A stretch of DNA of 64,000 nucleotides, from the NCBI GenBank assembly GCA_011321845.1, contig DROQ01000132.1, forward strand, positions 1,796 to 65,795, in the 5' to 3' direction. Positions within the stretch are counted from its first letter, which is position 1. The number at the start of each line of letters is the position of its first letter. Under the pieces are notes generated by a model. It was not told the origin of the DNA. It searched no databases and saw nothing but the letters and a program-made list of their open reading frames with translations. The stretch is from Planctomycetota bacterium. Its GTDB lineage: Bacteria > Planctomycetota > UBA1135 > GCA-002748355. This document shows, one piece after another, positions 44,461 through 57,430 of the stretch. A program made the translations under genes and the position numbers.

Positions 44461-44476
44461 CGGCACATTCCTTGCA
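44461..44476 (+). promoter_or_regulatory. sigma54 (-24/-12) promoter candidate CGGCAC-ATTCC-TTGCA
   Basis: Matches TGGCAC-N5-TTGCA at 10 of 11 defined positions, with correct GG-N10-GC spacing. It lies directly upstream of the response regulator ATG (44491). Confidence 0.5.
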
Positions 44477-48909: not shown

Positions 48910-50601
48910 CTACCAGTGGGCGACTCTCTCCTCGCTCTTGGCCAGACTGAAGGAGAAACAAGCCCCGCCCAATTCCTTGGAGCGTTCGCACCAGATCCGT
49001 CCCCCATGTTGGGCCACGATCTCCCGGCAGATCGGAAGACCCAAACCCGTCCCCTTGGGTTTTTCGGTCAGGGTATCGCCGACTTGCTTGAACTTTTCGA
49101 AGATCAACTCCCAATCCGCCTCGGGAATCCCCGGCCCATTGTCTTCGATACAAAAGAGAATGTTGTCTCCTTCTTCCCGGGCGGAGATCCGAACGACGCC
49201 GTGATCCTGGGGCAGAAACTTGACGGCGTTTCCGATCAAGTTCGTCAAAACCTGGTGCAAGCGGTCTCGATCCGCATGGATGGGAGGAAGGTTCTCCTCG
49301 ACCACCAATTGAATCTCCGCCCCCTTTTCCTGGAGAAGGGGTTGAAACACCTGACTCACACCCCGAAGCATGACCGTGGAATCCAGAGCGTCCGCCCGCA
49401 ACACCATCTCCCCCGCTTCGATCCGGGCTAGATCCAGAATGTCATCGACCAGGCGTGCCAGCCGCTCGCATTCCGAGATCACAACCCCCAAAAACTCTAC
49501 CCGCGTTTCTTCGTCCTCGGGAGCCATGTGCAAAAGGATCTCGGAATAGGACCGAATGGAAGTAAGGGGAGTCCGGAGTTCGTGGGAAACCGAAGACAAA
49601 AAATCTTCCTTCATTCGGTTCAACTCAAACACCGAGGTCATATCCACGAAGACGATCGCCACGCCTTGGACCTCGCCTTGCGATCGCCGCCCCCCCATCA
49701 GGATGGGAGCGATCGATAGGTTGAAGATCGCTCCGGAGAACACCAGGGATTCGAGAATCACCGTCCGGCGGGTCCGATTCGCGGTCTTTACCGCCGCTTC
49801 GATCCGAGGCCGAATGCGTTGGGGAAAGAGTTCCTCGAGCCGCGCCCCCTTCCAGCCACCGTCGGAACAACCGAGGACCTCCTGAGCCACAGGGTTGGCG
49901 AGTACCAGGTCCCCCCCACCATCCGCCACCACGACTCCCTCACCGAGGCTCTGGAGAACCGAGCGAATCTTCTCGAAGGCCATCTCCAAAGCCATGAAGT
50001 TGGCCTGGGAGGTTCGGGCCCGTTCGGAGAAATGCGCCACGAGGCTCCGGATTCCCCTGCCCAAATCCTCGAACTCCCGGATCCCCAAAGCTGGAAGGGG
50101 CTCGCCGTTTTCGAATCCTCCCCCCCCCAGGAAGTCATGGAACTTGGTCCACTTGGCCTCCATGGAACGGAAAAGGAACCAGAGCGCTCCCATGGAACCA
50201 GCGAAGAGGGCGGCAACGCTGAGAATCCAGACCCAGGCAACAGGAGAGGCGCGGCTCAGGCCCTCCATGACCAGACCACCCTCAAGGGTTTGGCTCCAAC
50301 GCTCGCCTTCCCCCTCCAAGCTCCCCAAGTCAAGGAGGGGGCGACCCTCCTCCGATCGCACTTTGAGCCCCCGAAGGGAATGCTCCGCTCCCACGGAGCC
50401 TTCCAAGCTTTCTGCAAGGATCCCCCATTCCCCCCTTCGCCCCAGGGTCTGCACGAGTTCCCCCAAAATACGTCGAGACTCCTCCGATCCCCTGGTTCCG
50501 GGCAAAAACCATAGCGCGAAGAAAACCACCCCTCCAAAAATGGGTAGGAGGATCAGCAATCCCCTGACCATGTTCGCATGGACAAGTCCAGGTGTTTTCA
50601 T
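48910..50601 (-). CDS. sensor histidine kinase (TM-sensor-TM, PAS-like, HisKA, HATPase)
   Basis: H-box LSSVSHELRTPLTSI, N box LTNLIGNAVKF, and G boxes IEDNGPGIP and GTGLGL. Confidence 0.85.
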   Translation of the reverse strand: MKTPGLVHANMVRGLLILLPIFGGVVFFALWFLPGTRGSEESRRILGELVQTLGRRGEWGILAESLEGSVGAEHSLRGLKVRSEEGRPLLDLGSLEGEGERWSQTLEGGLVMEGLSRASPVAWVWILSVAALFAGSMGALWFLFRSMEAKWTKFHDFLGGGGFENGEPLPALGIREFEDLGRGIRSLVAHFSERARTSQANFMALEMAFEKIRSVLQSLGEGVVVADGGGDLVLANPVAQEVLGCSDGGWKGARLEELFPQRIRPRIEAAVKTANRTRRTVILESLVFSGAIFNLSIAPILMGGRRSQGEVQGVAIVFVDMTSVFELNRMKEDFLSSVSHELRTPLTSIRSYSEILLHMAPEDEETRVEFLGVVISECERLARLVDDILDLARIEAGEMVLRADALDSTVMLRGVSQVFQPLLQEKGAEIQLVVEENLPPIHADRDRLHQVLTNLIGNAVKFLPQDHGVVRISAREEGDNILFCIEDNGPGIPEADWELIFEKFKQVGDTLTEKPKGTGLGLPICREIVAQHGGRIWCERSKELGGACFSFSLAKSEERVAHW

Positions 50602-50660
50602 CCGGAGTTCATCGGTTGGCAGTGGAACTTGGAGCCTGCGTTCCCCTCCTCCTTGAAGAA

Positions 50661-53411
50661 ATGCGGGTGATAAGAAGAGGAATCCCAGAGTATGATCTTA
50701 GAATAACTATCTCTATTTCGGCATTGGATTTAGCCCACTTGAAACCCAAAAAAAAACTCAGCCCCCGCGAACGCGACTCGGCCCTGGCCCAAGCTCGGGA
50801 GTATTGGGACAAGGGTCAAAAGGAAGAAGCGTGGGAGATCATCCAAAACCAGGGGCTCTTCCGCTGCAGAACCCTCCCCGTCCGTCGCTTTCTCGCCCAA
50901 GTTTACATGGAAAAAGGGCTGGCAAAGCGCTGCCTCCAACAGACGAGCATCCTCATCCGCAAGGACAAGAGCCTGGAGGTTTCCTATCTCCATGCCACCA
51001 GCCTCCGGGACCTGGGCCGCAACCAGGAAGCCCTCCGCTTCCTCACACCCCTGATTCGCGAACCCGGCCCCCAGGCGACCCCTCTCGAGCTGAGGTTCTA
51101 TCTGCTCTATTTCCTCGCTCTCTTCGACCATTCCCGAAAAGAAGCGATGAGCATTTTCAGCAAGGTGGAAAAGGTCATCGACGAGGCCGAACGGCGGGGA
51201 CAGGAGGAGCTCTTGGCCGAAGCCACCTTCTCCCTAGGCACCTCTCTCCGCAATACCAACCCCGAGCGGGCCATCCAGCTACTCGAGAAGGCGGGAGAAG
51301 CCTATAAAAACCAGGGAAACCTGAAGGCATGGACCAAGGCCTTGAACCACAAGGCCTACACCCTCTACCTGGCTCGGCGCTTGGAAGAAGCTCTTCGTTG
51401 CTACAAACAAGAGGCCAGGATCAAGCGGAGGTTGCGGGATTCCCCGGGCTTCGCAAATACCCTCCTTTCCATCGCCGACCTCCAAATGGAGCTTCTCCAT
51501 TTTCAACGGGCAGCCCTTGTCCTCGGCAAGGCCCTCTCCCTCCTCCCAACCCAGGACCTTTCCTGCATCCTCATGCTGGTCGAATGCGAGTTTCATCTCG
51601 GAGCCGATCCCGAACTCCTCCTGGACTTTCTCGAAAACCATGTGGAACCCCACTGCCACCAGGATTCCCCTTCCCCCAGATCCTACTTCTTTGACCTCCT
51701 CTCCAAGGTTCTCTGGGATCTCGGCCGGAAAAAGGAAGCAAGGGAGGCCCTGCAAAACGCCATCGATCTCAAGACACAACAAGCGGATGCCTCCTTCGCC
51801 TCGCATTTCCTCGCCTACCTGGCTTCCATGCAGAGCAACCGCAGGGAGGTCCGCCGAATCCTGGCCCAGGCCCAATGGAGTTCCCGAAGAGAGCCGGATT
51901 TCACCTGCGACCAGCTTCGACGCTGGATCACGGGCAAACCCGAATCCCCCTTGCCTCACACTCCCTATGAAAGACAAGAGGCCCAGAAACTGAGATCCCG
52001 CCTCGGATGGCTCCTGGGCCCTCCCAAGGAGGAGTCGAAAAAAGACGCATGGGGCGAGGAGCTTGCCAAGGCCCTCTCCCGCTGCGCCCAAGAAGGCCCC
52101 CAGGGAGTCCTCCCTTTTCTCCGGAAGTTCTACGGTGGCCCCCCCCTGGCCCTCCTCACCCTCCTCCCGGGGGGAGACTGGAAGCCCCTCCTCCTCAAGG
52201 GGATGCGGCTCCAGGAAGCCCTCAGCTTCGAGGAGGGAATTGGGAAAAGGGGCCCTCTCGCCCCCAAAAAAACCTGGAAGAGCCACGTGCGGGTCGCTTC
52301 CCCGGATCGAGGACTTCTGCTCTGCATCGGCTCCAAGAGGCGCTTCTTCCGCTTCGGCCCAAAAGACGTCCGAAGCCTTGAGACCTTCTTGGAACTCCTG
52401 CAACCTGTTCTCCGCTCCTGGGAGGGATTTGGTCCACCCCGAAGCGAAAGCCCCTCCTCCCTTGCGCCCAAGGAGAGTCGCCCCTCCTGCCCCCTCCTCC
52501 TGGGGAGCAGCTCGGCCATCCAAAAGCTCAGGGATCTCACCCACCGCTTCGCCTCCTCCGAGCTGCCTCTCTGCCTCCAGGGAGAGACGGGAACGGGCAA
52601 GAAGACCCTCGCGACCTACCTCCACAAGCTCTCCACCCATGGCCAGGGCCCCCTCGTCTTTGTGGATTGCGCCTCCCTCCAAGAGGGCCTCATCGAATCG
52701 GAACTCCTGGGTCACGTCAAAGGAGCCTTCACCGGCGCCCTCAAGGACCGCCCCGGCCTCTTCCAGCAGGCGACGGGGGGGAGTCTCGTTCTTGTGAACC
52801 CTATGGCCCTCTCGCAGCGGGGCCAAAGGCTCCTCCTGGGCGCCATCGAATCGGGGGGATTCCGCCCCCTCGGAGGGACACGAGTGTTCCCCCTCAACGC
52901 CCGCCTCCTCTGCACCACCAGTAAGAGCCTGGAGCGGGGTCTGGAGGATGGAAGCATCCAAGCGGATCTCTATTACCGCTTGTCGGGGATGACCCTCGAA
53001 CTTCCCCCGCTCCGGAATCGGGTCAGTGACCTTCCCCTGCTCGTCCAGGCCATGCTCCAGGAAGAGCGATTCCCGGGCCCAGCCCCCCTCCCCAGCTCCA
53101 TTCTCGCGCAGCTTCAAATGGAATCCTGGCCAGGCAACCTCCGTGAGTTGAGGAACCGGGTCCGCAAGGCCCTCATCCTCTCGGGAGGAGAACGCTGGGT
53201 CCCCCGTTTCCTCCTCCCCTCAGACTCCAACCCCAGCACCCGCCCCTCCTCCGAGGAGCTTTTGGACCTGAAATCCTCCCTCCGGGACTTCGAGCGCAAG
53301 CGCCTCTTGGGGGCTCTCGCTCGGTTCAACGGGCACCGGGAACGCACGGCGAGGGCTCTAGGGATCTCCCGGCGATGGCTCCAAAAACGGATCCGGGACC
53401 TGGGTCTCTGA
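50661..53411 (+). CDS. sigma54-dependent enhancer-binding protein with a long TPR-like N-terminal region and Fis-type HTH; Walker B degenerate
   Basis: Walker A GETGTGKK, GAFTGA loop (GHVKGAFTGA), ESWPGNLRELRN and C-terminal ARALGISRRWLQKRI. The N-terminal roughly 560 aa is TPR-like. Start is ATG 50661 or GTG 50592. Confidence 0.85.
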   Translation: MRVIRRGIPEYDLRITISISALDLAHLKPKKKLSPRERDSALAQAREYWDKGQKEEAWEIIQNQGLFRCRTLPVRRFLAQVYMEKGLAKRCLQQTSILIRKDKSLEVSYLHATSLRDLGRNQEALRFLTPLIREPGPQATPLELRFYLLYFLALFDHSRKEAMSIFSKVEKVIDEAERRGQEELLAEATFSLGTSLRNTNPERAIQLLEKAGEAYKNQGNLKAWTKALNHKAYTLYLARRLEEALRCYKQEARIKRRLRDSPGFANTLLSIADLQMELLHFQRAALVLGKALSLLPTQDLSCILMLVECEFHLGADPELLLDFLENHVEPHCHQDSPSPRSYFFDLLSKVLWDLGRKKEAREALQNAIDLKTQQADASFASHFLAYLASMQSNRREVRRILAQAQWSSRREPDFTCDQLRRWITGKPESPLPHTPYERQEAQKLRSRLGWLLGPPKEESKKDAWGEELAKALSRCAQEGPQGVLPFLRKFYGGPPLALLTLLPGGDWKPLLLKGMRLQEALSFEEGIGKRGPLAPKKTWKSHVRVASPDRGLLLCIGSKRRFFRFGPKDVRSLETFLELLQPVLRSWEGFGPPRSESPSSLAPKESRPSCPLLLGSSSAIQKLRDLTHRFASSELPLCLQGETGTGKKTLATYLHKLSTHGQGPLVFVDCASLQEGLIESELLGHVKGAFTGALKDRPGLFQQATGGSLVLVNPMALSQRGQRLLLGAIESGGFRPLGGTRVFPLNARLLCTTSKSLERGLEDGSIQADLYYRLSGMTLELPPLRNRVSDLPLLVQAMLQEERFPGPAPLPSSILAQLQMESWPGNLRELRNRVRKALILSGGERWVPRFLLPSDSNPSTRPSSEELLDLKSSLRDFERKRLLGALARFNGHRERTARALGISRRWLQKRIRDLGL

Positions 53412-53561
53412 GCTTCCCCCTCCCCTACGCCCCCCCTCAGCTCTTCCCCCAACCCGGATCCACCCCCTCCAAAACACCCGTAAAAGGAAAAAGGGCTAAA
53501 GTCATGTCTCTGAAACTCCGATGTCATGGGAACTTCATTCCAATTCAGACAAAGGAGACAC

Positions 53562-54125
53562 ATGCGAAACATCCTCTTAACCCTCCCCCTTCTTCTTCTC
53601 AGCGCGGGCTTCGTCCTGATCACCGAGACCTTCGACAATCTGAGCGACATCAACAACGCTGCCTTGCCGGACATGAGCGTCACGACGGGGCTCAGCCTGG
53701 TCGCGGACAGCCAAGGGGGAAAACGAGGCGAATTGGCCGAAGATGGCCAGGCCTTTTTCCACGATAGCCTGCCAGCCAGCCTTTCCTTTGAGTTGGAGCT
53801 GGAGAGTGGTGGCCGCTGCTCCCTCCGACCGGGAACTCGCACTGGACCACAACCCAGTTACGTCATTGCGGTTTTCGACACCTCCAGCAACCCCCAGGGG
53901 AACCCCACCCCCATTCAATTGGCCGCTGGGACACGCTACGAGATCTTCATGACCTTTGGACTGGATGGTTCGGGCCAGCCCCAGGACGACCTCTACTGGC
54001 GGGTTGCTGGCACCACCACCTGGAACCACCAGGACATCGATGTACCTCTCAGCGAACGCAGTGGGCTCTGGGAAGTCCAGGAAACCAACAAGAGCTGGAT
54101 GGACAACATCGAACTCTGCCCCTAA
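53562..54125 (+). CDS. hypothetical secreted beta-rich protein
   Basis: AAGGAGA SD. Signal MRNILLTLPLLLLSAGF. No family recognised. Confidence 0.55.
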   Translation: MRNILLTLPLLLLSAGFVLITETFDNLSDINNAALPDMSVTTGLSLVADSQGGKRGELAEDGQAFFHDSLPASLSFELELESGGRCSLRPGTRTGPQPSYVIAVFDTSSNPQGNPTPIQLAAGTRYEIFMTFGLDGSGQPQDDLYWRVAGTTTWNHQDIDVPLSERSGLWEVQETNKSWMDNIELCP

Positions 54126-54184
54126 GCCCCTTGTTCCTCGACCTGGAGTCCAGGGACCGTGGGGAAACAACCATCGCGGCTCTC

Positions 54185-54222
54185 CTGCCACATATGTGAA
54201 CATTCGTTCACATATGTGGCAG
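54185..54222. promoter_or_regulatory. 38-bp perfect hyphenated palindrome containing two CACATATGTG sites
   Basis: CTGCCACATATGTGAAC-ATTC-GTTCACATATGTGGCAG. The 10-bp palindromes sit at 54189-54198 and 54209-54218 (20 bp centre to centre). It could be a UAS/operator or an RNA hairpin terminator. Confidence 0.6.
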
Positions 54223-54250
54223 TTATACTCTTCCCGGAGTTGAGACACCC

Positions 54251-54285
54251 AAGCCTAAGTTTCCCTTTTTAAGCAACTTAGGCTT
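54251..54285. other. second hairpin (11-bp stem, 13-nt loop)
   Basis: AAGCCTAAGTT-N13-AACTTAGGCTT followed by AATCCAAAAAAATTTT. Confidence 0.3.
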
Positions 54286-54307
54286 AATCCAAAAAAATTT
54301 TACTCCT

Positions 54308-54323
54308 GGGCACATGCCTTGCA
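54308..54323 (+). promoter_or_regulatory. sigma54 (-24/-12) promoter candidate GGGCAC-ATGCC-TTGCA
   Basis: Matches TGGCAC-N5-TTGCA at 10 of 11 defined positions with GG-N10-GC spacing. About 105 bp downstream of the palindrome and about 420 nt upstream of the HEAT-repeat gene. Confidence 0.5.
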
Positions 54324-54742
54324 CTTCCCCAAACAGTTCCTTGGCAACGGCCAGGGAATGATTGGATTGACAAAATGGGAAGTCCAAAAGAGATCGACCC
54401 CGCCGTTCCCCTTCCTCCCACCCGAGGAAGAGGTGGGGCAGCTCGACGGCAGGCGCTGCGCACCACCCCATAGAGGCACGCAGGACCCCTTCAAGTTTGG
54501 ATGAAGGCTTGGAGGGCCGGTGGTTCGGATCGCTTCCCTTAGATGCTGTCATGGATTTCCCCGGGAGGGCAGGGTTGGAAGCCCGAGGCAAGCTTCCTTT
54601 CATCCCCCTGGCCCTCCGCCTTTTTTTTGGGGGGAACTCGGCTGCCCGCCCCTCAGGTCCGTTCCAAGCAAGCCTTCCTCCTCCAAGGCGCGGCCCCTTC
54701 CCTCCCACCTTTCTTCAGCTCATCCCCACCCCCATCCGATAG

Positions 54743-57430
54743 ATGCCCTGGATCCGAAACCTGGGATTGGTGGAGAAAAACATGCTGGAGAATCGACCTG
54801 GAGCTTCCCTCGCCCTGCGCCGCGCGGGAAAACCCCGCAACCTTGCCTTGACGAGAGGACTTCTCGCACAGAGCCTTCTCTTCGCCTGCTTCCTCCTCGC
54901 TCCCCTCGGAGCCCAGGCCGGCTCGAGCAAGGCTCCCTCGACACAAGGGAAAAGCCCTACCACCCCCCTGCTCATGGCACCCGAAAACGCCTGGCTCTTC
55001 GTCCGCGTCCCACTCGAAGACGGCAAGATCCCCGCTCTCCTCCGGGGACTTCCGGGAAACCTCCCTCAACTCTCCTCCTCCTGGCGAACCTGGGCCCGCA
55101 AGGCCTTTGGCGCCAAACCCGAAGACTGGAAGGCAGTGGAGATCTCCCTCCTTCACGCATCTGAAGGCGAGTACCCCGAGGGAACCATTCTCTTCTCCTT
55201 TCAAGAGGAAGGCGCTTCCCCGACTGCGCGCGAAGAGCGCCCCCCTTCCACCCGGATCCAAAAGATCCCCGCCCCCTTCTCCGGCCAGGCCCAATGGGCC
55301 ATGGCAAAGAGAGGAGGGAGAGTCTGGATCTCCAACCATCCCACGGCCGTTCGAAACGCACTGCGCCTCCAGGAGGGCGAGACGGGCAGCCTCTTCCAGG
55401 ATCCAGCCCTCGCCTCCCTTTGGAAAAACGCTCCCGCCCCATCGGGAGAGATCACCCTGTTTCTACGCTCTCTGGGAGTCCGAAACCGTCTCCGGCAGGC
55501 ACCCCTAGGGGCCAGCCTCCGGCGCCTGCTCAAATCCCCTTTGGGCCGCAGGAGCGGAATCCTGCTTCGTAAGAGCGTTCAGGATGGGCATGAAGAATGG
55601 ACCCTCCTCGGAGATTCCACCACTCCCCGGGACGAGGCGGATTCCCCTGGAGCGCCCCCCCACAAGGCACCCAACATCCCCCAGATCGAAGAAAGGTCCT
55701 GGCTTTGGATTTCACAGACCTGGACCCAGGGCCTTAAAGATCTCGAGGCCTGGGGACAAATCCCCGCACCTCTTCCTCTCCTCCCCTCCCTTGCCGAGAC
55801 CATCCGGGGAGCCTTGGGAGACCAGGAGAGACGAGCATGGGAAGAGGCTCTCGGCGAGGGGCTCCTCTGGCTCGGCCCTCTCCCGGAACAAAAGGGAAGC
55901 GGAGTCCTCGTCCCCGCACAAGATCCCAAGGCCATCCGAAAAGCCTTGCGGGCCGCAGGGGCCCGGCCTGCCGGCCCAAAGGCAGGCTCAGGCTCCTCAA
56001 GCCACTTCCTCTGGGAAAGCGGCAAAGGCAAGCTCCAGATCGAGATCCTGGATCGCTTCCTCCTCTTAGCGACCCCCGGATTTGACCTCGGAGGTCTGGA
56101 CCTGGAGGGCAATACTCAAGACCTGCCCGGAAACACCTTTGCGGCCGGGAGCCTCTCCGGAACCGCATGGAGCATCCATGGCCTCCCCAACTCCATGGAT
56201 TTCCAGGCGGAGAGGGACCCACAAGGAACCATCAAGATCCTGCTGAAGAACAGCGATGGGACCCTCCCCCTCTGGGCAAACCTCAGCAGGGCGCTGGGGA
56301 AGAAAACCGCGCGGGACCAACTCGAGCTGGCAGGCCAAGAGGACCCTGAACTGCTCGAGGCCATCCTGGGGACCCTCCGCCTGGAGACCGACCCGAAGAA
56401 AGCCCTGGCCGCCATCACTACAGCAGAAAAAGCCAAAGACCTCGAAACTCTCCGCGCCTACGCTCAGAGCGCACAAGCCAAAATCTCTTCAAGAGCCATC
56501 GAGGCCTTGGGAACCTTGAAGGACCAGGGCTCCGCGGGGCTTTTCGAAAAAGGAGTCGCCCAAGACCAACCTCAGCTCCTCCGCAAAGCCGCCGCCTACG
56601 GACTCTCCCGCATGGGGACACCCAAGGCGAGGGCCCTCCTCCGGGACTTCATTCTGGACTCCGACCTCCATGTCCGGCTCTATGCCCTCAAAGCCCAGAG
56701 CCCCAAGGACCTGGATGCGAAGACCAAGGACAAGCTCCTTCGGCTCGTAGATACCTGGACCAAGGACCAGGTCGCGGATCGGAGCCAGGCCCTCCTTCTT
56801 CTGCATGATCACGGGGACCCAAGCTGCTTGAACGCTCTCGCTCTCACTCCAGCGGGGGGGAGCCGTTTCCAGCAGGCCTTGGTCTATACCTTTCAAGACC
56901 TCTCCCCCAAGCTTTCCAAGAGGGAGGAGGTCCAGGTCCTCCGCAAGGCCATGCGCTCCCGTAACATGGCCCTCCAACGCTACGCGATCCAGCGCCTCGG
57001 GGCTCTTGGAACCCCCGAAGCGATCGCAACACTCAGGGAAGAATCCAAACGGCTGACCGGCACCCCTCTCGCTCCGGTCCTCCAGACTTCCCTCGAAGCC
57101 AATTCCGCCGGCCCCGACCTCGGAGCTTGGGTCCGCGACGCCAAAGCGAAAGCCCAGTTCTGGTTCCTCTCCGCCAAAAGCTGGCTTCGAAGGCAGAGCC
57201 CCACCACTCAGAAAATCCTCGCTCTCAGCCCCTTGGGACTCCTGCTCCTCTTTGGAGCCTTTTGGATGATGCGGCGAAGGAGGCGCAAAAGGTTGGCGGA
57301 GGAGGAGATCCAGGAACTCCTTCGCCCCTCCAACGATGCAGGGGAACCACCCCTCGATTCGGAGCCCGCAGGCAGCCTCCAAATAGAAGAGGAAGAGGAA
57401 TACGCCACATCCCTTTACGACCGGGAATAG
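54743..57430 (+). CDS. large signal-peptide protein with C-terminal HEAT/PBS-lyase-like repeats and a C-terminal TM anchor
   Basis: Signal LLAQSLLFACFLLAPLGAQA. HEAT-like units (AIEALGTLKD..., AAYGLSRMGTPKA..., AIQRLGALGTPEA...). TM segment ILALSPLGLLLLFGAFWMM followed by RRRRRKR. Confidence 0.7.
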   Translation: MPWIRNLGLVEKNMLENRPGASLALRRAGKPRNLALTRGLLAQSLLFACFLLAPLGAQAGSSKAPSTQGKSPTTPLLMAPENAWLFVRVPLEDGKIPALLRGLPGNLPQLSSSWRTWARKAFGAKPEDWKAVEISLLHASEGEYPEGTILFSFQEEGASPTAREERPPSTRIQKIPAPFSGQAQWAMAKRGGRVWISNHPTAVRNALRLQEGETGSLFQDPALASLWKNAPAPSGEITLFLRSLGVRNRLRQAPLGASLRRLLKSPLGRRSGILLRKSVQDGHEEWTLLGDSTTPRDEADSPGAPPHKAPNIPQIEERSWLWISQTWTQGLKDLEAWGQIPAPLPLLPSLAETIRGALGDQERRAWEEALGEGLLWLGPLPEQKGSGVLVPAQDPKAIRKALRAAGARPAGPKAGSGSSSHFLWESGKGKLQIEILDRFLLLATPGFDLGGLDLEGNTQDLPGNTFAAGSLSGTAWSIHGLPNSMDFQAERDPQGTIKILLKNSDGTLPLWANLSRALGKKTARDQLELAGQEDPELLEAILGTLRLETDPKKALAAITTAEKAKDLETLRAYAQSAQAKISSRAIEALGTLKDQGSAGLFEKGVAQDQPQLLRKAAAYGLSRMGTPKARALLRDFILDSDLHVRLYALKAQSPKDLDAKTKDKLLRLVDTWTKDQVADRSQALLLLHDHGDPSCLNALALTPAGGSRFQQALVYTFQDLSPKLSKREEVQVLRKAMRSRNMALQRYAIQRLGALGTPEAIATLREESKRLTGTPLAPVLQTSLEANSAGPDLGAWVRDAKAKAQFWFLSAKSWLRRQSPTTQKILALSPLGLLLLFGAFWMMRRRRRKRLAEEEIQELLRPSNDAGEPPLDSEPAGSLQIEEEEEYATSLYDRE

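Follow-up and report, generated by a model that had tools for sequence, protein, structure and literature searches.

The window analysed here is a 64,000-nucleotide (nt) stretch of contig DROQ01000132.1 from a Planctomycetota genome. The element in question is a 38-bp perfect palindrome that lies between the gene of a predicted sigma54 enhancer-binding protein (EBP) and a sigma54-type promoter, followed by a structured RNA. The source genome (G000) is 4.16 Mb in size, with 60.7% GC, 268 contigs and 92.6% completeness. The features at the locus were as follows.

48910..50601, minus strand: PAS histidine kinase gene (Pfam PAS_4/HisKA/HATPase_c), divergent from the EBP gene and syntenic in all related loci
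50592..53411, plus strand: tetratricopeptide repeat (TPR)-type sigma54 EBP, 939 aa, with a TPR N-terminus, AAA+ domain with GAFTGA, and C-terminal Fis-type HTH_8
53562..54125, plus strand: small secreted protein, 187 aa, its ATG behind AAGGAG; the last gene before the palindrome
54185..54222, no strand: 38-bp perfect palindrome CTGCCACATATGTGAAC-ATTC-GTTCACATATGTGGCAG, with 17-nt arms and a 4-nt centre
54194..54213, no strand: core dyad ATGTGAAC-ATTC-GTTCACAT, the proposed EBP binding site (upstream activating sequence, UAS), delimited by the invariant columns of a five-locus alignment
54308..54323, plus strand: sigma54 -24/-12 promoter GGGCAC-ATGCC-TTGCA, with a predicted transcription start near 54334
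54334..54628, plus strand: structured RNA of ~295 nt, with a 5' hairpin, a genus-specific 5' domain and a family-wide 3' domain (alignment and consensus fold)
54443..54617, plus strand: the family-wide 3' domain (covariance model R2), with an invariant unpaired AGGCACGCAGG (54474-54484), a GGAUGA apical loop and an AGGCA loop
54563..54628, plus strand: terminal hairpin (GGGAGGGCAGGG ... CCCCCUGGCCCUCC) plus U8 (54621-54628), an intrinsic terminator in the genus of the source genome (g1)
54743..57430, plus strand: gene of a HEAT-repeat protein, 895 aa (Pfam HEAT_2), ~115 bp downstream of the RNA terminator

Nine orthologous loci from four genera were compared: those of g1 (G000, G001, L015, L016 and L017/L019), g5 (G005), g8 (G008 and G010) and g4 (G004). 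The L017 and L018 contigs stop short of the promoter and add a tenth, near-identical dyad sequence. All compared sequences are metagenome-assembled genomes of one family. A metagenome pattern scan for further loci returned only the G000, G001 and G004 contigs plus 19 chance matches, and no new lineages.

Re-reading of 54185-54222 reproduced exactly the perfect 17+17 palindrome of the original prediction, with arms 100% complementary around the 4-nt centre. It is single-copy in the 4.16-Mb genome (genome-wide sequence search) and ranks 7th by length among the perfect hairpins there. In random sequence of the genome's size, ~0.002 perfect hairpins with a stem of at least 17 bp would be expected (4.16e6 x 9 loop sizes x 4^-17). 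A REP-like (repetitive extragenic palindromic) element was rejected, because the palindrome and its core are both single-copy.

The sequence CACATATGTG occurs twice in the palindrome, at 54189 and 54209, 20 bp apart as first described. The genome scan for such pairs that had been proposed was run over the 4.16 Mb, and found no copy beyond this palindrome; within the window, 0.23 copies were expected by chance. These twin sites had been read as the targets of two EBP dimers, and this part of the prediction failed. In the relatives the 10-bp sub-palindrome is broken (CAGATATGTG/CACATATCTG, CAGAAATGTG and CACAATGTG; CATGACGTG in another genus), and only the central dyad was retained throughout. 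The conserved unit thus has the size of a single dimer site.

The palindromes at the compared loci read as follows.

g1 (G000): CTGCCACATATGTGAAC-ATTC-GTTCACATATGTGGCAG
g1: GCCACAATGTGAAC-GTTC-GTTCACATTGTGGC
g1: CTGCCAGATATGTGAAC-GTTC-ATTCACATATCTGGCAG
g1: GCCAGAAATGTGAAC-ATTC-GTTCACATTTCTGGC
g1 (L017/L019): AAAAGC(T/C)GCCAGGAATGTGAAC-GATC-GTTCACATTCCTGGC(A/G)GCTTTT
g5: CATGACGTGAAC-GATC-GTTCACGTCATG
g8: GATGAGAAC-GATC-GTTCACATC and CATGGGAAC-GATC-GTTCTCATG
g4: ATCGGAAG-GATC-CTTCCGAT

Within g1, ATGTGAAC...GTTCACAT was invariant in the five-locus alignment. GAAC-NNTC-GTTC was common to g1, g5 and g8, and GAA-N6-TTC to all loci. The g4 variant (G004), GAAG-GATC-CTTC, carries a symmetric change (C to G and G to C) at +/-3, its sole difference from the g5/g8 core; the g4 element agrees with the left arm of G008 at 8 of the 10 half-site positions.

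The intergenic alignment of the five g1 loci (58% mean column identity) contained two conserved islands only, the dyad and the promoter with the transcript start. In g5 and g8, GAAC-GATC-GTTC was found in intergenic DNA that is otherwise unalignable; by simple arithmetic, the chance of a 10-base match in ~250 bp is ~2e-4 per genome. The 4-nt centre was the self-complementary GATC in 6 of the 10 sequences, in four genera. This fits a double-stranded DNA site, and has no meaning for an RNA loop.

The distance from the dyad centre to the first G of the -24 GG was 105.5 bp in G000 and 102.5, 103.5, 103.5 and 104.5 bp in the other g1 loci. It was 113.5 bp in g5, 116.5 and 117.5 bp in g8, and 117.5 bp in g4. 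Dyad-symmetric sites 80-150 bp upstream of the -24 element are in the classical UAS range, and all nine loci fell within it.

Genome-wide, TGTGAA-N6-TTCACA had one copy, as expected for a dedicated local regulator, and GAAC-N4-GTTC had 72, about the chance level. Near-matches to the dyad at C65:2492 and C166:2122 were rejected as further sites. Both lie in dense, apparently coding sequence (without an open reading frame call), and neither had a good sigma54-like site nearby; the C166 candidate, TGGATCTCCCCTTGCT, has a poor -24 element.

Two other inverted repeats were noted near the palindrome. A perfect one, AAGCCTAAGTT-N13-AACTTAGGCTT (54251..54285), sits in the A/T-rich spacer between dyad and promoter; it is found in G000 only and is unconserved in the five-locus alignment. 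One g1 lineage carries an extra perfect hairpin with a 15-bp stem (CCATCAGCTGATTCG...CGAATCAGCTGATGG; L017 4598-4640 and L019 3185-3227) after the stop codon of the small-protein gene and ahead of the conserved palindrome, which there is not the first hairpin after the gene.

The near-consensus sigma54 promoter at 54308-54323, also part of the original prediction, was upheld. In G000 it has one mismatch to TGGCAC-N5-TTGCW, and the GG-N10-GC spacing is correct. The bare pattern was not above chance, as the window held 2 sites with at most one mismatch, against 1.08 expected. The promoter was taken as real because it is conserved at nine orthologous loci, and not because of the pattern match. 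All nine EBP-linked loci of the four genera kept the GG-N10-GC arrangement, with TTGG as the -12 element in G010. The promoters outside G000 were as follows.

L015: TGGCAC-AACCC-TTGCT
L016: CGGCAC-ACCCC-TTGCT
L019: CGGCAC-ACCCC-TTGCA
G001: AGGCAT-GCCCC-TTGCT
G005: TGGCAC-GCCTC-TTGCG
G008: TGGCAC-AGCCC-TTGCT
G010: TGGCAC-GCCAT-TTGGT
G004: TGGCAC-ATCCT-TTGCT

No sigma70-like promoter was predicted in 53300-55000. Lack of rpoN had been named beforehand as a finding that would speak against a sigma54 promoter; two separate rpoN-like loci were present in G000 (Sigma54_DBD, 206 and 186 bits), at C3:10376-10852 (L001) and C52:19104-19583 (L002). The genome had 26 Sigma54_activat matches, ~19 of them strong. 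Elsewhere in the window, a second near-consensus sigma54 promoter, CGGCAC-ATTCC-TTGCA, was seen at 44461-44476, ~15 bp before a response-regulator gene; its upstream elements differ.

The EBP gene, originally placed ~770 bp upstream, ends at 53411, 774 bp before the palindrome. Its product matched Pfam Sigma54_activat (1.7e-43), AAA_lid_14 and HTH_8, and its helix-turn-helix (HTH) aligned to the DNA-binding domains of NtrX, NtrC4, NtrC, ZraR and Fis. EBP, dyad and sigma54 promoter occurred together in six genomes of four genera. In G004 the 187-aa gene is absent and the dyad is kept, starting 5 nt after the EBP stop codon. This suggested that the dyad travels with the EBP and the promoter.

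The recognition helix of the EBP reads RRWLQKR in g1, g5 and G010, RRWLHKR in G008 and RRWLQER in g4. Thus g4 is the only genus that pairs an altered dyad (C to G) with a K-to-E change in the recognition helix. The lysine probably lies opposite Fis K90 and NtrC R461, which are DNA-contact positions.

We lean moderately towards the following interpretation of these features. Within the palindrome, the central 20 bp (ATGTGAAC-N4-GTTCACAT; minimally GAAC-NNTC-GTTC) would be the upstream activating sequence, on which a dimer of the neighbouring TPR-type EBP would dock through its Fis-type HTH. The bound EBP, ~105 bp upstream, would contact sigma54-RNA polymerase at GGGCAC-N5-TTGCA across the A/T-rich spacer. 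The promoter would then yield the ~295-nt structured RNA (54334-54628), which in g1 would end at its own intrinsic terminator, upstream of the HEAT-repeat gene. The protein site would not include the outer 9 bp of either arm, which lengthen the dyad to a 17-bp hairpin; in g1 this hairpin probably doubles as a 3'-end or insulating hairpin of the EBP/187-aa-protein unit. It is from sequence comparison that we infer binding of the EBP to the dyad, firing of the promoter at ~54334 and the mode of activation. Thus the original enhancer reading appears sound as to a UAS ~105 bp upstream served by the neighbouring EBP, in view of the conserved islands, the spacing and the co-occurrence, and not as to the twin-site geometry.

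The original prediction offered an RNA hairpin as the alternative. In its strict form, the palindrome would act solely at the transcript level, terminating or stabilising the mRNA of the 187-aa-protein gene or the EBP operon, and would have no role at the sigma54 promoter. The palindrome starts 60 nt 3' of the stop codon of the 187-aa gene, on the coding strand, and the G004 element is still closer to the EBP stop codon. As RNA it folds strongly (-29.6 kcal/mol; z = -5.55 for 54120-54260). The outer arms of the g1 loci differ by at least 4-5 compensatory double changes or symmetric indels, and by no one-sided change; the variation in outer arms is almost always symmetric, consisting of substitutions plus one-base deletions in both arms. 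In L017/L019 the outer arms gained A5/T4 flanks (AAAAAGC...GCTTTT), which resemble the AAAAGCC...GGCTTTT terminators of the genome. A G-T opposition in the G008 arm would be a G-U pair in plus-strand RNA.

On the other hand, a U-tract is absent from most loci. An intrinsic terminator consists of a GC-rich hairpin and then a U-tract; the stem in G000 has 47% GC, in contrast to the terminators of its own genome, its 3' tail is TTATACTC, and terminator prediction did not call it. No U-tract follows the element in G001, G005, G008, G010 or G004, while T-rich tails were seen in L015 and L017/L019. The stem is 17-22 bp long in g1, 12 bp in g5 and 9 bp with a mismatch in g8, although the inner sequence does not vary from genus to genus. 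A hairpin kept for its structure only would show the reverse. The GATC loop, the other 15-bp-stem hairpin already standing before the palindrome in L017-L019, and the lack of the element exactly where the EBP and the sigma54 promoter are lacking also argue against a hairpin-only role, which we regard as rather unlikely. What survives of this alternative is the compensatory change in the outer arms and the A5/T4 flanks of one lineage; the missing conserved U-tract and the stem of 9-12 bp elsewhere count against it. The element is likely composite: a single putative EBP dimer site, which in g1 is extended into a hairpin; there the hairpin likely also terminates or insulates the transcript from upstream.

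The dyad may instead be the operator of another regulator (Rex-, LexA- or CRP-like) that modulates the RNA promoter or the upstream gene. The TGTGAAC/GTTCACA half-sites equal those of the Streptomyces Rex operator, TGTGAACGCGTTCACA; GAAC-N4-GTTC equals the Gram-positive LexA (Cheo) box, and TGTGA...TCACA is reminiscent of CRP sites. The spacing is off for Rex (N6 versus N4 between TGTGAA and TTCACA) and for CRP (N8 versus N6), and neither a Rex (Put_DNA-bind_N) nor a LexA (LexA_DNA_bind) DNA-binding domain was found in the 92.6%-complete genome. A Rex operator was thus rejected, as the site has N6 in place of TTGTGAA-N4-TTCACAA and the genome holds no canonical Rex sites. A Cheo-type SOS box was rejected as well: its motif is present, yet at chance frequency (the 72 sites above), with no LexA domain found. 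A position 105 bp upstream of a sigma54 promoter is no operator position, and the element strictly accompanies the EBP gene. We consider such an operator very improbable.

A feature of the EBP that the original prediction did not mention is its lack of Walker B. Walker A (GETGTGKK), GAFTGA and the HTH are kept. In G000, the Walker B motif reads GGSLVLVNPM instead of GGTxFLDEIG, with DE replaced by VN (AAA+ region, window 52700-52830), and the first arginine finger is changed to Q (IQADLYYRL instead of FRxDLxxRL). The Walker B glutamate was missing in every EBP orthologue, where the pair reads VN, QN, IQ, IN or IT in g1, DN in g4, DD in g5 and DH in g8; the comparison covered the orthologues in L013, L014, L015, L016, L019 and L025-L030. 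The g1 EBPs additionally lack the Walker B aspartate and the first arginine finger. By alignment, the canonical EBPs of the same genome carry DE and FRxD. The EBP is apparently ATPase-defective.

In PspF, the E108Q mutant binds and remodels the sigma54 holoenzyme on ATP binding, and bubble formation requires hydrolysis; rings tolerate defective alternate subunits (PMC4132715). By this precedent an EBP without the Walker B glutamate should not melt DNA alone. It may depend on an active partner, or may be a gate instead of a motor. For activation to proceed without the Asp-Glu pair, the route would be either an active partner EBP in a mixed ring, or ATP binding alone.

The same residues allow for an EBP that binds the dyad without activating. 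It would hold or block sigma54-polymerase, by poising or repression, and another, active EBP would fire the promoter. The loss of DE in all genera and of the first arginine finger in g1, next to a retained GAFTGA and Walker A and to canonical EBPs with DE in the same genome, is consistent with this, as is the engagement of the holoenzyme without a bubble by PspF E108Q and the tolerance of rings for defective subunits (PMC4132715). Candidates for the active EBP are at hand, as ~19 other EBPs are encoded in the genome. However, a near-consensus promoter conserved together with the dyad fits activation equally well, and the DD of g5 might retain some activity. Genera without the EBP are also without the canonical promoter, which would follow more readily from an EBP required for expression. 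We hold a purely non-activating EBP to be fairly improbable.

In a further extension, the ATPase-defective EBP would be, clade-wide, a DNA-tethered and hydrolysis-independent gate (or the non-catalytic half of a mixed ring), and the pseudoknotted RNA would be riboswitch-like for downstream secreted-protein genes. If this were true, the EBP would have kept GAFTGA, its DNA-binding helix and the enhancer in order to poise or block sigma54-polymerase, and the terminal hairpin of the RNA with its competing loop pairing would form the switch. This is speculative, and we think it unlikely.

Several points weigh against activation by the EBP from the dyad, the interpretation that we favour. The lack of the Walker B glutamate in all orthologues, and in g1 of the aspartate and arginine finger as well, is the first. 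The exclusively compensatory change in the outer arms, together with the A5/T4 flanks in one lineage, is not explained by a protein site. It appears to show selection, or a template-switch bias, for hairpin formation; template-switch correction of quasi-palindromes could maintain perfect symmetry without selection. The element stands, at every locus, just behind the final gene of a co-oriented unit, a place where a terminator would be expected. Only one dyad is present, while many EBP enhancers have two or more sites in tandem. The spacing shifts from genus to genus (about 103, 113.5 and 117 bp), and not every shift amounts to a whole number of helical turns. The co-variation of K to E with C to G is a single event, and the arguments from co-variation and from loss both draw on few independent events.

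The predicted product of the promoter, which had also been missed, is a conserved structured RNA that ends at the 54621-54628 terminator. G001 aligned with the window over the palindrome, the promoter and ~295 nt from ~54334 to the hairpin and U-run at 54621-54628. Past this point, up to the ATG of the HEAT gene (54743), the sequences were unalignable.

The consensus fold has nine helices. In six sequences, compensatory double changes were found in 31 of 77 pairs, and 95.6% of the cells were paired, against at most 57.7% in slid controls; this figure comes from an alignment fitted to the model, and such fitting favours the structure. In all 10 sequences, one helix carries an apical loop whose bases complement those of the terminal hairpin's 3' internal loop, with covariation between the two: GGAUGA/UCAUCC in g1, GAUGGA/UCCAUC in g4, CGGAUGGAGG/CCUCCAUCCG in g5, g7 and g2, and CGAAUGGAGG/CCUCCAUUCG in g8. 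This complementarity indicates a putative pseudoknot or an alternative pairing.

Model R2 matched 8 of 11 genomes of the family and none of 140 genomes from nine other families of the order. A scan of 53000-55500 with Rfam 15 gave nothing at E <= 1 except a spurious microRNA-family match (E = 0.93) on the palindrome, and ARAGORN found no tRNA or tmRNA in the region. A tRNA, a tmRNA and a known RNA family were thus rejected as the identity of the RNA. As judged from these searches, the candidate RNA family is previously undescribed, and within the order it is found only in this family.

Other identities were considered for the transcript. A small open reading frame in 54334-54742 was rejected, as the sole ATG (54360) is ATC in the relatives and 8- and 9-nt indels break the frame. 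The GGA-rich loops could suggest a CsrA or Hfq sponge; this was rejected, as neither protein was found in the 92.6%-complete genome. A simple leader of the HEAT gene was weakened by the full terminator in g1 and by the downstream gene, which varies between genera. The U7-U8 run was confined to the g1 loci, with ACCUUUUCUC, ACCUUCC and similar sequences elsewhere. The RNA is an independent unit in g1; outside g1, without the U-tract, read-through as a leader may occur.

The arrangement resembles known pairs of EBP and RNA genes. In Pseudomonas cbrA-cbrB-crcZ, a sigma54-dependent non-coding RNA reportedly lies just downstream of its EBP gene, a finding said to go back to Sonnleitner and colleagues in 2009 and to later work. 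Both systems have the order sensor kinase, EBP and non-coding RNA, a sigma54 promoter and an EBP site (here predicted) in the EBP-RNA intergenic region, and an RNA with its own terminator. However, CbrB belongs to the NtrC-type response regulators and has both a receiver domain and an ATPase that is intact, whereas the EBP here starts with a TPR region and has neither a receiver nor the Walker B glutamate. The RNA resembles CrcZ in neither sequence nor structure and has no A-rich Hfq/Crc motifs (and Hfq itself was not found). A small secreted-protein gene is inserted here between the EBP gene and the RNA.

GlrR-GlmY of enterobacteria is another case of a sigma54-dependent small RNA adjoining its EBP gene. 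LuxO/SypG-Qrr1 of Vibrio has the same arrangement (PMC10162802). Common to GlmY, Qrr1 and, as predicted, the locus here are the sigma54 promoter, upstream EBP sites and an EBP-linked RNA gene. Qrr1 and GlmY are short, depend on Hfq and act on known targets by base-pairing or as decoys, whereas the RNA here has ~295 nt, nine helices and a conserved predicted loop-loop interaction. GlrR has three TGTC-N10-GACA sites, in contrast to the one dyad here.

Classical EBP dyads are TGCACC-N5-GGTGCA for NtrC and TGT-N10-ACA for NifA. PexR is an EBP that reads dyad repeats (PMC12754779). The element here is like classical enhancers in its 16-20 bp dyad, 100-120 bp upstream of the -24 element, in the Fis-type HTH and in the A/T-rich spacer. 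It differs in its motif (TGT-N12-ACA or GAAC-N4-GTTC), in being a single site inside a much longer perfect palindrome, and in the missing catalytic residues of its EBP. With intrinsic terminators it shares a perfect hairpin soon after a stop codon and, in one lineage, the A-/T-tract flanks; it differs from them in having no conserved U-tract, a moderate stem GC, and an inner stem and loop that are conserved across genera while the stem length is not. The locus is set apart from cbrB-crcZ, luxO-qrr1 and glrR-glmY by the EBP architecture, the single palindrome-embedded site, the unrelated large pseudoknotted RNA and the phylum.

To our knowledge, hardly any work has addressed sigma54 regulation or regulatory RNAs in Planctomycetota. 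The locus offers a compact module of one kinase, one TPR-type EBP, one enhancer dyad, one promoter and one structured RNA. Natural variants exist: one genus combines a symmetric dyad change with an altered recognition helix, and in two genera the EBP has been lost. The module poses the question of how a near-consensus sigma54 promoter would be served by an activator without the Walker B catalytic pair. It also provides an RNA family with strong covariation that is absent from Rfam, and an example of a putative enhancer embedded in a hairpin that possibly doubles as the 3' end of the upstream gene.

The neighbouring genes were compared in the related loci. The order kinase (minus strand), EBP, small secreted protein, dyad, promoter and RNA was found in g1, g5 and g8. 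Orthologues of the PAS kinase were present in G001 and G004, and in G007 and G002 the kinase adjoins the RNA directly. The EBP gene appeared split in L017 and L018; this was rejected, being explained by an N10 scaffold gap. The 187-aa protein had no Pfam match. Its orthologues were 79-99% identical, with weak but significant homologues at the same position in g5 and g8 and none in g4. The protein likely belongs to the module, because in three genera its homologues are encoded at this same place, downstream of the EBP gene and ahead of the dyad.

The RNA loci of G007 (g7, 84% complete) and G002 (g2, 70% complete), which are contiguous in both genomes, contained no EBP orthologue, GAAC dyad or canonical sigma54 promoter. 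G007 (L040 1326-1338) has a palindrome, ATCGGA-T-TCCGAT, that agrees with the outer arms of the dyad in G004 and lies 129 bp upstream of a weak GG-N10-GC element, AGGACC-TTTGG-TTGCT. It may be a remnant, that is, a decayed enhancer.

A short CCGATA(R) motif was seen in g1, g4, g8 and g2, 60-110 nt 3' of the RNA and ahead of the next gene (window 54700-54712; L004, L011, L029, L030 and L043). It may be part of the promoter of the downstream gene.

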